A stretch of 47,232 nucleotides of DNA from Candidatus Omnitrophota bacterium (GCA_024277375.1 JAJRVD010000002.1:1-47232), one strand, 5' to 3'. Shown: positions 696 to 40,180, counted from the first letter of the stretch. The notes: generated from the sequence alone by a model not told the origin. Numbers and translations: made by a program.

Positions 696-1343
696 ATGAA
701 GGATAAGAAAAAAATACCAGAGCCGGCTATACCGCGTCTTTCTCTATATTCCAGGGCTCTTCATGCCGCTGGAAAGATAGAGTTCATCTCCTCAGAGGAG
801 TTAGCTTCTCTTGCCGGGGTTAAGGCTGCCCAGGTTCGCCGTGACTTGACGTATTTTGGTCAATTTGGCACTCCCGGCAAAGGTTATAATGTAAAGAAAC
901 TACATGGACAGATAGTTCGGATACTCGGCGGCGATAAAGAATGGAACGTCGCGCTGGTGGGTGTAGGTAATTTAGGTGCCGCTTTTCTTCATTTTGAAGG
1001 GTTTCGTCAGCGCGGGTTTAATATTGTTTGCGCTTTTGACCGCGACGAATCTAAGGTAGATAAAGATTTTGGAACGGTTAAGGTCCAGTCCATAAGCGAC
1101 TTACAGGAGACCCTGAAAAAGGGAGATATAAATATCGCGATCGTAGCGGTTCCCGGAGGGGCCGCCGAGGAAGTTATGAATGCACTTAGCGATGCGGGCA
1201 TAAAAGCGATACTGAACTTTACATCCTTTAGGCCGCAACTGCCGAAAAAGGTACAAGTTTTGAATATGAATTTGACAATTGCGTTGGAGCAGTTGGCATA
1301 CTTTTTGACAAAGGAAACGAAGGACAACGTTTTTTTTGTGTAA
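696..1343 (+). CDS. rex: Redox-sensing transcriptional repressor Rex
   Basis: IP..IPRLSLY, SSEELA, QVRRDLTYFGQFG..G.GY, GVGNLG Rossmann motif, ILNF; start moved to ATG 696 because the longer ORF runs through the tRNA. Confidence 0.96.
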   Translation: MKDKKKIPEPAIPRLSLYSRALHAAGKIEFISSEELASLAGVKAAQVRRDLTYFGQFGTPGKGYNVKKLHGQIVRILGGDKEWNVALVGVGNLGAAFLHFEGFRQRGFNIVCAFDRDESKVDKDFGTVKVQSISDLQETLKKGDINIAIVAVPGGAAEEVMNALSDAGIKAILNFTSFRPQLPKKVQVLNMNLTIALEQLAYFLTKETKDNVFFV

Positions 1344-1345
1344 CC

Positions 1346-1378
1346 TCGTGATAAAATTCACTGTGATATTTGTCACAA
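1346..1378. promoter_or_regulatory. Two tandem Rex-type operators (15-bp period)
   Basis: GTGA-TAAAAT-TCAC and GTGA-TATTTG-TCACAA match the Rex box TTGTGAA-N4-TTCACAA; lie between rex and the heme genes. Confidence 0.7.
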
Positions 1379-1379
1379 T

Positions 1380-2018
1380 ATGAAAAATCATTATCCGATA
1401 AACTTAGATCTGGAAAAGAAGCGATGCATTGTGATCGGCGGTGGTAACGTGGCTGAACGCAAGGTTAAGCGCCTCCTGGATTGCAATGCGGTAGTTACGT
1501 TGATAAGTCCGGAGGTTTCTTCCGGGATAATCCGACTTCGCAAAACTAAAAAAATTAAAGTTGAAATGCGGCGGGTTGCCCTAAAAGATCTTAAGGGCGC
1601 GCAGTTGGTTATTTCCGCTTCTGATGACAGGAAGGTAAACGCTTCGGTATCTGATTATTGTCATCGCAATAACATATTGATAAATGTTGTGGACTCGCCA
1701 AAAGAATGCAACTTTATTTTACCTTCGATCGTGACCCGAGGAGACCTCAGTATCGCGATATCTACAGGTGGAGTAAGTCCAGCTCTTTCTAAAAAGATCA
1801 GACAGGACCTTGAGAAAAGGTTTGGCATTGAGTACGCTAAGTTTTTGAGATTGATGAAAAAGGCGCGGCCAAGGGTAATTAAAGGGGTAAAGAACGCGGG
1901 GTCGAGAAAAACAATTTTTGAAAAAATTGTTAAGTCCAACATTTTAGTGTTGATAAAGAAGGGTAGAGAAAAAGACGCAAAACAAAAAATGGAACGTATT
2001 TTAAAAAATGATAAATAG
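1380..2018 (+). CDS. sirC: Precorrin-2 dehydrogenase / sirohydrochlorin ferrochelatase (SirC/Met8p, CysG N-terminal-like)
   Basis: YPINL, GGGNVAERK, NVVDSP..CNF..PS, IAISTGG.SP. Confidence 0.92.
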   Translation: MKNHYPINLDLEKKRCIVIGGGNVAERKVKRLLDCNAVVTLISPEVSSGIIRLRKTKKIKVEMRRVALKDLKGAQLVISASDDRKVNASVSDYCHRNNILINVVDSPKECNFILPSIVTRGDLSIAISTGGVSPALSKKIRQDLEKRFGIEYAKFLRLMKKARPRVIKGVKNAGSRKTIFEKIVKSNILVLIKKGREKDAKQKMERILKNDK

Positions 2019-2472
2019 ACTAACAGATTTTTCTTCAGGGTTCGGAAATGCGTATTTCGTTACGCACCTTATCGCTATTGTTGCCAGCTATGCTGTGTTT
2101 TTTGTGACGTTCTCTGCGGCGGTTCTATATTTGGTGCAGGATAATAACTTGAAGCGTAAACATCTGGGCGCGATGTTCAATAGATTGCCGGATCTATCTT
2201 TGTTAGACAAGCTTACTTATAGATCAATTGAGTTGGGGTTTCCTATTCTGTCAGTGGCTATCATTGCCGGATTTCTTTTACAGAAAGATATTTCGGGTTC
2301 TTACTGGAATTGGAATACCAAGGAAGTATATTCGGTAGTTTCATGGCTTCTTTACGCTGTAACACTACACGTGAGGTTGTCATCCAAGTTGCGCGGGAAA
2401 AAGGTAGCGCTTTTATCAATTTTGGCGTTTGGTATAATTGTATTCAGTTTGTTCGTCGGATGTGGGGGATAA
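2008..2472 (+). CDS. Short CcsA/HemX-like membrane protein
   Basis: LPDL..LD, W.W..KE..S..SW..Y...LH.R motif; typical position upstream of hemA; shorter than full CcsA. Confidence 0.8.
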   Translation: MINRLTDFSSGFGNAYFVTHLIAIVASYAVFFVTFSAAVLYLVQDNNLKRKHLGAMFNRLPDLSLLDKLTYRSIELGFPILSVAIIAGFLLQKDISGSYWNWNTKEVYSVVSWLLYAVTLHVRLSSKLRGKKVALLSILAFGIIVFSLFVGCGG

Positions 2473-38891: not shown

Positions 38892-38954
38892 ACAGTAAAT
38901 GGTCGTAGGAGCGGCCTCTGGCCGCGAACAGAAAAAACAAATACTAATCGTCAA

Positions 38955-39073
38955 TAGACTGTGTCTTAATGTAGGGGCTTGATTTATCAAGCCCGTTATA
39001 TCGGGTTCGATGAATCGAACCCCTACAATATATTGTATGCGGCCATCCGCAAAACGAATTACGACACAGTCCG
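38955..39073 (-). mobile_element. MITE-like element, copy 6
   Basis: TAGACTGTGTC...GACACAGTCCG, 119 bp, splits GTCA.../ATTGCGAG. Confidence 0.8.
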
Positions 39074-39166
39074 ATTGCGAGGAGTGAACACAACGACGAA
39101 GCCGAGGGACACCGTTCCCGAGGTCATCCTGAGGCCAGAGGGCCTCAGGGGAGCAATCTCTAAAAA

Positions 39167-39586
39167 ATGAAAATATTTGTAGCCATATTAATTTTACTTT
39201 CTACCGTCGGCCTGACCTTGTATTGCACCAGCCAGGACGGCCGGGATCCTGACGGTTGTCTGGGCTGCCATATGGACGCCTTTCAAAATATACAGTACTT
39301 ACATCCCCTGGTAAGGCAGGGGGAATGCACAGTGTGTCATATCGAGTATGATATTGAGACCCATCAGGATTCCGGAGATGTGACGTTTGATGTTTGTGTG
39401 GAGTGCCATAATGATGAAAACCTTGGGCGCTCTCATTCTGTCGGCCCCGGTGTTTTGGATCCAAATACGGGTGGTACGATGACCTGCACTTCTTCTTGTC
39501 ATTTTCCACATGGGTCTGATAATAAGTTTCATTTGTCGTTTCGCGACAAAGCTGATCTGTGTCGTAGTTGCCATGCTGAATTTTAA
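39167..39586 (+). CDS. Small exported multiheme cytochrome c (4 CXXCH + 1 CX3CH)
   Basis: Leader peptide; CLGCH, CTVCH, CVECH, CTSSCH, CRSCH. Confidence 0.88.
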   Translation: MKIFVAILILLSTVGLTLYCTSQDGRDPDGCLGCHMDAFQNIQYLHPLVRQGECTVCHIEYDIETHQDSGDVTFDVCVECHNDENLGRSHSVGPGVLDPNTGGTMTCTSSCHFPHGSDNKFHLSFRDKADLCRSCHAEF

Positions 39587-39598
39587 GGGAGGGATGTA

Positions 39599-40180
39599 AT
39601 GTCAAATAACGTTATAGCTAAACGCAGAAGATTTTTTTTAAAAGACTCATCACAACCAACGCTTATTCTCAAAGTTTATATGATGTTACTTGTGGTTATG
39701 TGTTCCTCCGGAGGGGTGTTTTATTTTATAGGGAATAAGAATCTGACCCAGGAATTTTTCAAAGCGCACTCTGTGATCGAAACTACGATGCAGCTATTGT
39801 TGCCCGCGTTAGTTGCAGTTAACCTCATCGCGCTTTTAGTGGCGTCCTTTTTGGTGATCTCGTTTTCTCATTCTATCGCGGGTCCGGTTTATAGATTGAA
39901 AAACTTATCCGGAAGGATCGCGAAAGGAGACTTGACCGTTGTGGTCAAGTTTCGAGAGAAAGACGCAATTCAGGAGTTGTCAAAAGTCATAAATGATATT
40001 ATAATGGGTTTAAATTCACGTCTGAAAAATCTTGAGGGATCTCTAACGGAGCTCGGGAATTTGTCTGATAAAGTGGAGAACATGAATGCGCTTTCTCCTG
40101 AAGACCTGGCAAACCTCAAGGATAGAATTCTGACGGTAAGTTCTGAACTGGAAGAGAAGATGAAAGAATTTAAACTGTGA
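39599..40180 (+). CDS. Two-TM HAMP-domain membrane protein
   Basis: SHSIAGPVYRL.....IAKGDLT....FREKD...EL HAMP signature, short coiled tail. Confidence 0.8.
   Translation: MSNNVIAKRRRFFLKDSSQPTLILKVYMMLLVVMCSSGGVFYFIGNKNLTQEFFKAHSVIETTMQLLLPALVAVNLIALLVASFLVISFSHSIAGPVYRLKNLSGRIAKGDLTVVVKFREKDAIQELSKVINDIIMGLNSRLKNLEGSLTELGNLSDKVENMNALSPEDLANLKDRILTVSSELEEKMKEFKL

Follow-up and report, generated by a model that had tools for sequence, protein, structure and literature searches.

In the genome of a Candidatus Omnitrophota bacterium, the genes of a predicted Hdr-Flx electron-bifurcating module directly follow a gene for a giant membrane multiheme cytochrome, and the same junction is kept in a second phylum, the Planctomycetota. 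We propose a membrane-cytochrome-coupled Hdr-Flx whose high-potential outlet would be a chain of cytochromes instead of DsrC, a reading to which we give an even chance. The DNA analysed here (GCA_024277375.1, JAJRVD010000002.1:1-47232), called the window below, is 47,232 nucleotides long and constitutes the whole of contig C105 in a genome of 2.07 Mb (108 contigs, 95.7% complete, 0.07% contaminated). All open reading frames (ORFs) with a family match in the window lie on the plus strand, and the Pfam and NCBIfam matches confirm the inventory given in an original prediction made from the sequence: rex, the Ahb heme pathway, cytochromes, hdrCBA-mvhD-nfnAB-flxCBA, ccsBA and a barrel cluster. The window is a composite of two separable units. 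The first, judged by its family matches, is a cytochrome island with siroheme-route heme synthesis, NapC-type and c554-type cytochromes, CcsBA and an Mtr/OmcE-like barrel-cytochrome conduit, and it is also found in a few other Omnitrophota. The second is a 14-kb block (13585-27574), located between the c554-type gene and ccsB, which is predicted to encode the giant membrane multiheme cytochrome followed by hdrC-hdrB-hdrA (with a GltD insert)-mvhD-nfnAB-flxCBA.

The giant cytochrome and the Hdr-Nfn-Flx operon

The giant cytochrome (13585-16959) consists of about 30 predicted membrane helices followed by a NapC-like domain with eight CxxCH motifs and one CX4CH motif; an in-frame TAA (16624-16626) interrupts its gene. 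The membrane part is built of three internal repeats (HHalign probability 97-98%, a score that the hydrophobic composition may inflate). Behind the last helix, residues 866-956 match PF03264 (NapC/NirT) with 32.3 bits (cut-off 24.1). In this domain, the Cys and His that bind heme, those of CX4CH included, are invariant across 31 family members, in which residues 1-860 hold no histidine conserved at 80% or more. The AlphaFold2 (AF2) model (pLDDT 82.9, pTM 0.71) has no fold match in the PDB at E ≤ 0.001, with TM scores of at most 0.25. An assignment of residues 1-860 to DUF2339 was rejected, as the ESM Atlas score of 0.80 lies at chance level and nothing reached 0.9 or more. The family is rare: a word search among 5.8 billion proteins returned two near homologs, and a profile search of 1.84 billion proteins about 25 full-length representatives of 1200-1440 amino acids. 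Full-length members occur in 4 of the 401 Planctomycetota genomes sampled. Searched with the family alignment, genome contigs yielded one locus, and none with a single-protein query; metagenome contigs yielded no locus with either the family alignment or a homolog (P0002). As far as we found in the literature, these proteins form a family of membrane cytochromes, very large in size, that had not been described. The same search, which did not extend to supplementary operon figures, returned no description of this family or of a cytochrome-coupled Flx-Hdr operon.

With its stop read through, the cytochrome frame extends to 16959; the start of hdrC lies at 16940 or 16964, so the two genes abut as originally predicted. 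HdrC (16940-17611) matches Pfam Fer4_8 among others, TIGR03290 and a qmoC-like family, and is 39-43% identical to its Planctomycetota copies; around residues 113-140 it carries an insertion of about 20 residues relative to three aligned Planctomycetota orthologs. HdrB (17608-18495) contains two stretches of Pfam CCG, and the Cys of both motifs are invariant in all four aligned orthologs. Two more HdrB paralogs, 37% and 44% identical to this one, lie 3 kb apart elsewhere in the genome (G000:C104:7689-8567 and 11203-12033). HdrA (18495-21863, with an in-frame TAG at 21213-21215) contains, behind residue 290 or so, an inserted GltD/NfnB-like NAD(P)H/FAD domain that the original prediction had not described; HdrA proteins of about 1110 residues with a GltD-like insert are common in the database. 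The gene for MvhD/FlxD (22087-22560, Pfam FlpD, 180 bits) follows. Behind it, predicted NfnA-like (FAD/NAD/2Fe-2S) and NfnB/GltD-like genes stand side by side (22572-24786; NF004862, 403 bits against 220, and TIGR01316, 586 against 472). The flxC-, flxB- and flxA-like genes (24887-27574) encode Fer4 proteins and an FAD/NAD/2Fe-2S protein, with orthologs in the same order in two Planctomycetota and five Omnitrophota. At the level of Pfam and NCBIfam families, the operon thus holds the contiguous hdrC, hdrB, hdrA, mvhD-like flxD, flxC, flxB and flxA of an FlxABCD-HdrABC gene set. The predicted abutment of flxA and ccsB takes the form of a 4-nucleotide overlap.

The junction of cytochrome and hdrC is conserved. 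In five of five genomes that show a full-length member together with its flank (this one and the Planctomycetota G041, locus L007, G330, G203 and G428), hdrC directly follows the giant cytochrome. Beyond hdrC, hdrB is visible in four of the five and mvhD-flxCBA in three, the other contigs ending earlier. The cytochromes of the window and the Planctomycetota are 26-28% identical overall, and their HdrB proteins 56-61%. In the Planctomycetota, as far as the contigs reach, hdrC is followed by hdrB, an HdrA N-terminus fused to a NuoE-like domain, a NuoF-like gene, a NuoG-like domain fused to the rest of HdrA, mvhD, flxC, flxB and flxA. Both cytochrome-linked forms of HdrA carry an NAD(P)H insert, GltD-like here and NuoE/NuoF/NuoG-like there. 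Genes for c554-like and 11-heme NapC-like cytochromes, ccsB(A) and ahbC-like proteins lie beside the Planctomycetota operons. On the G330 contig, hemA, a 4-heme OmcE-like cytochrome and an NHL protein follow ccsBA, a partial echo of the conduit. Since the pairing of cytochrome and Hdr recurs in the Planctomycetota, the link between them is probably functional.

In other Omnitrophota the two units occur apart. One genome (G738) has sirC through hemL, NapC, c554, ccsB, ccsA and the whole conduit in the order of the window, without the 14-kb block; a second (G777) has the same island without the block on two contigs, and a third (G675) the conduit part, likewise without it. HdrB orthologs (55-59% identity) are present in 6 of 400 other Omnitrophota. 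The context was read in five of these six (G005, G622, G703, G750 and G804, with G713 left out), and all five hold a plain hdrC-hdrB-hdrA (654-662 amino acids)-mvhD-flxC-flxB-flxA operon with neither giant cytochrome, GltD insert nor nfnAB. In G005, which belongs to the same family as the present genome, this operon (L099, G005:C26:26000-39907) ends 1 kb upstream of sirC-hemX-like-hemA-hemC, a second case in this lineage, differently arranged, of Hdr-Flx placed next to heme synthesis. The operon of G622 is 12 kb away from a NapC-c554-ccsBA cytochrome island, and around the operons of G703, G750 and G804 no cytochrome is in view.

These comparisons bear on the original prediction in several ways. 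Its single locus with a regulator of its own gives way to a composite, given the three Omnitrophota with the island in the same order but without the block, the five with hdrCBA-mvhD-flxCBA but without an adjacent cytochrome, and the position of rex, which is not adjacent to the island in G738. The synteny search that it called for linked the giant cytochrome to hdrC across two phyla, but found the island and Hdr-Flx unlinked in other Omnitrophota. Its central idea, a high-potential branch wired to a cytochrome chain, agrees with the cytochrome-hdrC junction; the onward link to the outer-membrane conduit is full only in this genome and partial in one Planctomycetota contig, and only the link between Hdr-Flx and the giant cytochrome is conserved. 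Owing to the conservation of that junction across two phyla, the interpretation is in part supported, and on stronger ground than adjacency in one genome.

In this genome, Hdr-Flx is not accounted for by a Dsr pathway. DsrC (PF04358) has no match in the 95.7% complete genome, AprA was not found in it, and no DsrA match exceeds the cut-off, the sole one (84 bits, on C92) lying among ORFs that we judged by eye to be assimilatory sulfate-reduction genes (CysN-, CysD- and CysH-like). The window itself, as originally stated, has no dsr, apr or mcr family among its Pfam and NCBIfam matches. Rnf, for which a check of the genome had also been suggested, is present as a cluster on C41, and an Nqr/Rnf-like cluster on C50 is followed by MenA (TIGR00751, 119 bits, cut-off 102) and a neighbouring polyprenyl synthase. 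Further searches of the genome recovered no molybdopterin oxidoreductases, no complex I antiporter-like subunits and no MqnA/D, while MenB and MenG/UbiE stayed below cut-off. A [NiFe] hydrogenase is split over two contig ends. Ten of the 11 reading frames with at least two CxxCH motifs in the whole genome lie on the window contig. The only multiheme cytochrome outside it, a DmsE/MtrA-like 7-heme protein on C50, belongs to a second possible export module (G000:C50:3067-15098, L012), in which a six-gene Nqr/Rnf-like cluster, MenA and polyprenyl diphosphate synthase are accompanied by this cytochrome and two unknown proteins of 708 and 441 amino acids.

Proposed electron route and its rivals

We postulate that the giant cytochrome serves as the membrane partner of HdrCB, which would dock on it. 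In the direction that we favour, FlxA, NfnAB and the GltD insert would take electrons from NAD(P)H. HdrA would then split these by flavin-based bifurcation, one going downhill to the cytochromes and the other uphill to ferredoxin, and Rnf would convert the reduced ferredoxin into an ion gradient. The high-potential electron would pass, directly or via (demethyl)menaquinone, to c-type hemes at the outer surface of the inner membrane and not to DsrC; NapC-like, c554-like, MtrA-like and OmcE-like cytochromes would carry it out through the barrel. We infer the contact between cytochrome and HdrCB, the direction of flow, the bifurcation and the role of quinone. The cytochrome-coupled reading is supported by the junction, kept in all five genomes and both phyla at such low cytochrome identity, and by the lack of DsrC, of DsrA above cut-off and of AprA. 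Several further observations speak for it as well: the NAD(P)H inserts of both cytochrome-linked HdrA forms where the stand-alone ones are plain, the cytochrome, ccsB(A) and ahbC-like genes flanking the Planctomycetota operons, the presence of Rnf and of the Nqr/Rnf-like cluster with MenA, the concentration of multi-CxxCH frames on this contig, the retention of both CCG motifs in HdrB, and conduit genes that match MtrA and the OmcE N-terminus in a gene set resembling the omcE cluster.

A further-reaching proposal can be put forward only tentatively, and we think it less likely than the coupling itself. The giant cytochrome and HdrCBA-MvhD-FlxCBA may constitute a new respiratory complex, present in at least two phyla, that couples flavin-based bifurcation directly to the reduction of extracellular or periplasmic cytochromes (NAD(P)H to ferredoxin plus cytochrome c), with a membrane fold that has no solved relative; free quinone might not be required. 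Such a complex and Rnf would between them provide a complete energy-conserving chain for anaerobes that lack complex I and Dsr.

Electrons could also flow the opposite way. Arriving from a partner cell, Fe(II) or a cathode, they would enter through the conduit and the giant cytochrome and be confurcated with reduced ferredoxin at HdrA to yield NAD(P)H. All parts are reversible in principle, the original prediction had left the direction open, and the small genome (2.07 Mb) suggests a partner-dependent life. Moreover, Omnitrophota have been proposed as participants in direct interspecies electron transfer on account of expressed multiheme cytochromes, according to the part of PMC7382037 available to us. 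This scheme, however, requires a source of reduced ferredoxin, and Rnf in that role would gain nothing for the cycle. No result of our analysis favours uptake, and we consider this direction rather unlikely.

We are equally doubtful that the two sets of genes are neighbours without wiring. Hdr-Flx would then be an ordinary cytoplasmic enzyme working with NADH, ferredoxin and an unknown disulfide, and the giant cytochrome one more quinol dehydrogenase of the export chain, placed upstream by chance. The plain operons without cytochromes in five other Omnitrophota agree with this, as do the three relatives in which the island, lacking the block, functions as a unit, and the NapC/NirT domain is the classical quinol-dehydrogenase module of its Pfam family. 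Yet the divergent cytochromes keep overlapping or abutting frames with hdrC in all five genomes, the giant cytochrome was never seen away from hdrC in the genomes examined, and no DsrC-like acceptor was found in this one.

The stop codons in the two key genes, neither of which the original prediction had recorded, require separate consideration. The cytochrome ORF of 1013 codons ends at the TAA, and its frame continues to 16959 with five more CxxCH motifs, which align with the C-terminal hemes of its homologs. The TAG of hdrA falls on a position that is Glu in all three aligned homologs; the read-through protein aligns without gaps over 1121 residues, at 79% identity, to an uninterrupted homolog (P0005). 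P0005 and the cytochrome homolog P0002 seem to be encoded on one contig of 55,406 bp. Selenocysteine is ruled out for hdrA, its interrupting codon being TAG and not TGA, and reassignment of a stop codon was likewise rejected: TAA, TGA and TAG end long ORFs 649, 391 and 375 times, respectively. As all three terminate and no suppressor tRNA is among the 37 tRNAs found in the genome, the standard genetic code applies.

Similar interruptions occur elsewhere. All five same-frame ORF pairs that we checked are single genes cut by one stop: EF-G (TAA, C98:24768-26843), GAPDH (TGA, C62:12976-14031, with exactly one profile position missing), IF-2 (TAG, C12:10746-13301), a Mur ligase (TAA, C17:19840-21264) and an ABC transporter (TAG, C64:3551-5461). 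The pairs were hand-picked from 133 candidates of a coding-potential screen, which was noisy, included many ordinary neighbouring genes and missed both cases in the window. A large-subunit fragment of the [NiFe] hydrogenase (C39:10-513) also carries an in-frame TAG. The inferable sense codons stand for Glu, and for Glu or Lys in the cytochrome, which is compatible with G-to-T changes. Since essential genes cannot all be broken, the stops are most likely substitution errors in the assembly consensus, and we do not take the two in the block as signs that it is dead. Pseudogene calls on this genome call for caution in view of these probable errors. That two nonsense mutations inactivated the cytochrome and hdrA fits the in-frame stops, the normal termination at all three codons and the lack of a suppressor tRNA among the 37 found, but is very improbable, as the sequence behind the stops is as conserved as that before them and EF-G, IF-2, GAPDH and the Mur ligase cannot all represent real gene loss.

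Several observations nevertheless weigh against the cytochrome-coupled reading. Both key genes, those for the cytochrome and HdrA, carry in-frame stops; a full-length giant cytochrome is present in none of the 400 other Omnitrophota species genomes sampled; and the modules are separable, the island occurring in three Omnitrophota without the block and Hdr-Flx in five without the giant cytochrome alongside. With no conserved histidine in the membrane part, no route through the membrane by way of heme b can be discerned. The quinone genes recognised, among which MenA alone passes its cut-off, do not make de novo synthesis of menaquinone evident. Finally, three NAD(P)H-binding modules in one operon blur the stoichiometry.

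Heme synthesis, cytochromes and the putative conduit

At the 5′ end of the window, rex (696-1343) encodes the redox-sensing repressor (NF003995, 235 bits against a cut-off of 126; Pfam Put_DNA-bind_N and CoA_binding). A weak candidate for a Rex-box-like palindrome (1361-1378) lies between rex and the heme operon, with three mismatches to the 18-bp sequence that we take to be the Rex consensus. The window holds 12 such sites with at most three mismatches, of which only this one is intergenic; mononucleotide shuffles give 2.5.

The heme genes follow in the order sirC-like, small CcsA/HemX-like, hemA, hemC, cobA/hemD, ahbC, hemB, ahbD, ahbA, ahbB and hemL. The sirC-like gene (1380-2018) encodes a precorrin-2 dehydrogenase/siroheme ferrochelatase domain (TIGR01470, 159 bits against 62.3; Pfam NAD_binding_7, Sirohm_synth_M and CysG_dimeriser). 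The small CcsA/HemX-like membrane protein (2008-2472) has a partial match to Pfam Cytochrom_C_asm and occupies the same place in G738, G777 and G005. The segment from 2310 to 5933 contains hemA, hemC and a fused cobA/hemD (Pfam GlutR_N, Porphobil_deam, and TP_methylase with HEM4; TIGR01469, 313 bits). An ahbC-like radical SAM enzyme (5973-7130; best match TIGR04546, 561.5 bits, below the cut-off of 650), hemB (7302-8378; Pfam ALAD, 464 bits) and an ahbD-like heme b synthase (8363-9478; TIGR04545, 497.1 bits, cut-off 500) come next, succeeded by the siroheme decarboxylase subunits ahbA and ahbB (9339-10597; NF040708, 155 bits against 140, and NF040707, 186 against 125). The last gene is hemL (10716-12044; Pfam Aminotran_3, 255 bits), which is 68-70% identical to the hemL found at the same place in G738 and G777. 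With AhbA and AhbB above cut-off, AhbC and AhbD as best matches just below it, and cobA/hemD and a sirC-like gene present, this set corresponds to the siroheme-dependent (Ahb) pathway of heme b.

Nine cytochrome genes carry 78 CxxCH, two CX4CH, one CX3CH and one CX9CH motifs. This reproduces the 82 heme motifs, four of them atypical, that had been counted originally, provided that the TAA of the giant cytochrome is read through; otherwise 73 canonical motifs remain. Downstream of hemL stand a NapC/NirT-type membrane-anchored cytochrome (12090-12914) and a periplasmic c554-like tetraheme protein (12941-13474; Pfam Cytochrome_C554, 73 bits). Like the giant protein, the former has a transmembrane helix followed by a NapC/NirT multiheme domain, here with eight CxxCH and one CX4CH (Pfam Cytochrom_NNT, PF03264, 44.2 bits; its best NCBIfam match, NrfH, is below cut-off). 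The block then intervenes, and ccsB (resB) and ccsA for system II cytochrome c maturation (27571-29431; Pfam ResB, 166 bits, and Cytochrom_C_asm, 180 bits) lie on its other side.

The 3′ part begins with an MtrA-like decaheme cytochrome (29442-30239), which matches chain A of the PDB entry 6r2q at 7e-12, and an NHL-repeat β-propeller (30326-31348; Pfam NHL, 119 bits). Two paralogous 10-heme cytochromes (31367-33749) have an OmcE-like N-terminus: in the first (31367-32437), residues 1-82 match 9yuq_N (1.2e-10) and 7tfs_A (2e-10). These are followed by a cytochrome with 13 CxxCH and one CX9CH (33722-35197), whose sole PDB match is a weak one to NrfA (0.0073), and by a putative outer-membrane β-barrel of 588 amino acids (35233-36999). 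The barrel protein has no Pfam match itself, PF13609 (Porin_4) matches five of eight homologs, and its closest named relatives come from metagenome-assembled genomes of Candidatus Omnitrophota/Omnitrophica. Its AF2 model is all-β with about 28 strands, at low confidence (pLDDT 59.6). An MtrA-like 11-heme cytochrome (37015-38037; 6r2q_A, 1.2e-15) adjoins the barrel gene, a pairing that suggests an Mtr-type conduit. A CsgG/LpoB-like lipoprotein (38100-38891; Pfam CsgG, 31.5 bits, LpoB, 30.1 bits) precedes the end of the island, formed by a small 4(+1)-heme cytochrome and a conserved unknown protein of 193 amino acids (39167-40180), both at the same place in G738, G777 and G675. The MtrA and OmcE N-terminus matches and the porin-family relatives of the barrel bear out the barrel and nanowire-like cluster of the original prediction. 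According to the parts of the sources available to us, 6R2Q is the MtrAB-C structure (PMC7198977) and 7TFS is OmcE (10.1101/2024.12.21.629920).

Directly 3′ of the conserved island, positions 40348-45828 encode an unknown protein of 173 amino acids and one of 1645 amino acids, whose sole Pfam match is a weak starch-synthase (GT5) domain. Glycosyltransferase genes trail many omcE clusters, as stated in the accessible part of a preprint (10.1101/2025.10.22.684050).

Related systems and biological meaning

The conduit genes resemble two known assemblies. The omcE cluster of Desulfuromonadia combines multiheme cytochromes, a β-propeller, an OmcE-like subunit and a large barrel next to resB/ccsB, and the portion of the preprint that we could consult places OmcE homologs in five phyla, neither Omnitrophota nor Planctomycetota being among them (10.1101/2025.10.22.684050). 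The same gene set lies beside resB/ccsB here, and MtrA-like cytochromes flank the barrel as in MtrCAB. Unlike OmcE, a tetraheme subunit of about 220-230 amino acids, the two paralogs hold 10 hemes in 356-396 amino acids, and the homology is confined to the first 82 residues or so of the 356-residue protein instead of running its full length. Multiheme cytochromes are expressed by Omnitrophota (Nobu et al. 2020, PMC7382037), and three CbcL-like and three ImcH homologs are listed for Omnitrophica (Zhong and Shi 2018, PMC6295460, Table 1), both as given in the sections accessible to us.

For the operon itself, the closest likeness is FlxABCD-HdrABC of Desulfovibrio vulgaris, reportedly described by Ramos et al. 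in 2015, which uses DsrC as its disulfide substrate. Common to both are contiguous hdrA, hdrB and hdrC, an MvhD-like FlxD, three Flx genes and an FAD/NAD/2Fe-2S FlxA. The present operon differs in that no DsrC was found in its genome, a giant cytochrome gene heads it, HdrA has the GltD-like insert and nfnAB-like genes lie within it. QmoABC, DsrMKJOP, TmcABCD, HmcABCDEF and HdrDE join a cytoplasmic Fe-S protein of CCG/HdrB or HdrD type to a membrane subunit; Qmo also includes HdrA-like flavoproteins, and Dsr, Tmc and Hmc include periplasmic c-type hemes. Their membrane subunits are heme b proteins (HdrE/NarI-type) or of the NrfD type. The protein described here has instead a membrane part of about 30 helices in three repeats, with neither a histidine conserved at 80% or more across 31 family members nor a PDB fold match at E ≤ 0.001, and a fused NapC-type multiheme domain. 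FixABCX/EtfABCX, which bifurcates electrons from NADH to ferredoxin or flavodoxin and to quinone as a high-potential membrane acceptor, follows a logic analogous to our proposal, but belongs to the unrelated Etf family and has no cytochromes.

The nearest published idea that we found concerns HotSeep-1. Murali et al. 2023 (PMC10553843) describe a complex encoded there by two genes, one for HdrA and one for a heme c protein that includes a CCG domain, and propose that it passes electrons between cytochromes c on one side and DsrC or ferredoxin on the other. Like our reading, that proposal connects cytochromes c with a module of HdrA type that may bifurcate, and HotSeep-1 performs extracellular electron transfer. 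The architecture differs, however: the HotSeep-1 complex is a two-gene unit of a sulfate reducer, with DsrC as the suggested acceptor and hemes and CCG on one protein, and the part of that article available to us mentions neither a giant polytopic cytochrome nor Flx.

The findings extend Mtr/OmcE-like export clusters to the Omnitrophota, show the assembly of such systems from separable modules and define a previously undescribed family of membrane cytochromes of very large size. Bifurcating enzymes of the Hdr type are known to work with soluble thiol acceptors, for example CoM-S-S-CoB and DsrC, and the role of HdrABC homologs in the many anaerobes without such acceptors is a standing question. 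A conserved operon with HdrCB right behind a membrane multiheme cytochrome offers, for one group of this kind, a concrete answer that can be tested: a chain of cytochromes may form the high-potential branch, and in the present genome it would extend to a conduit in the outer membrane.

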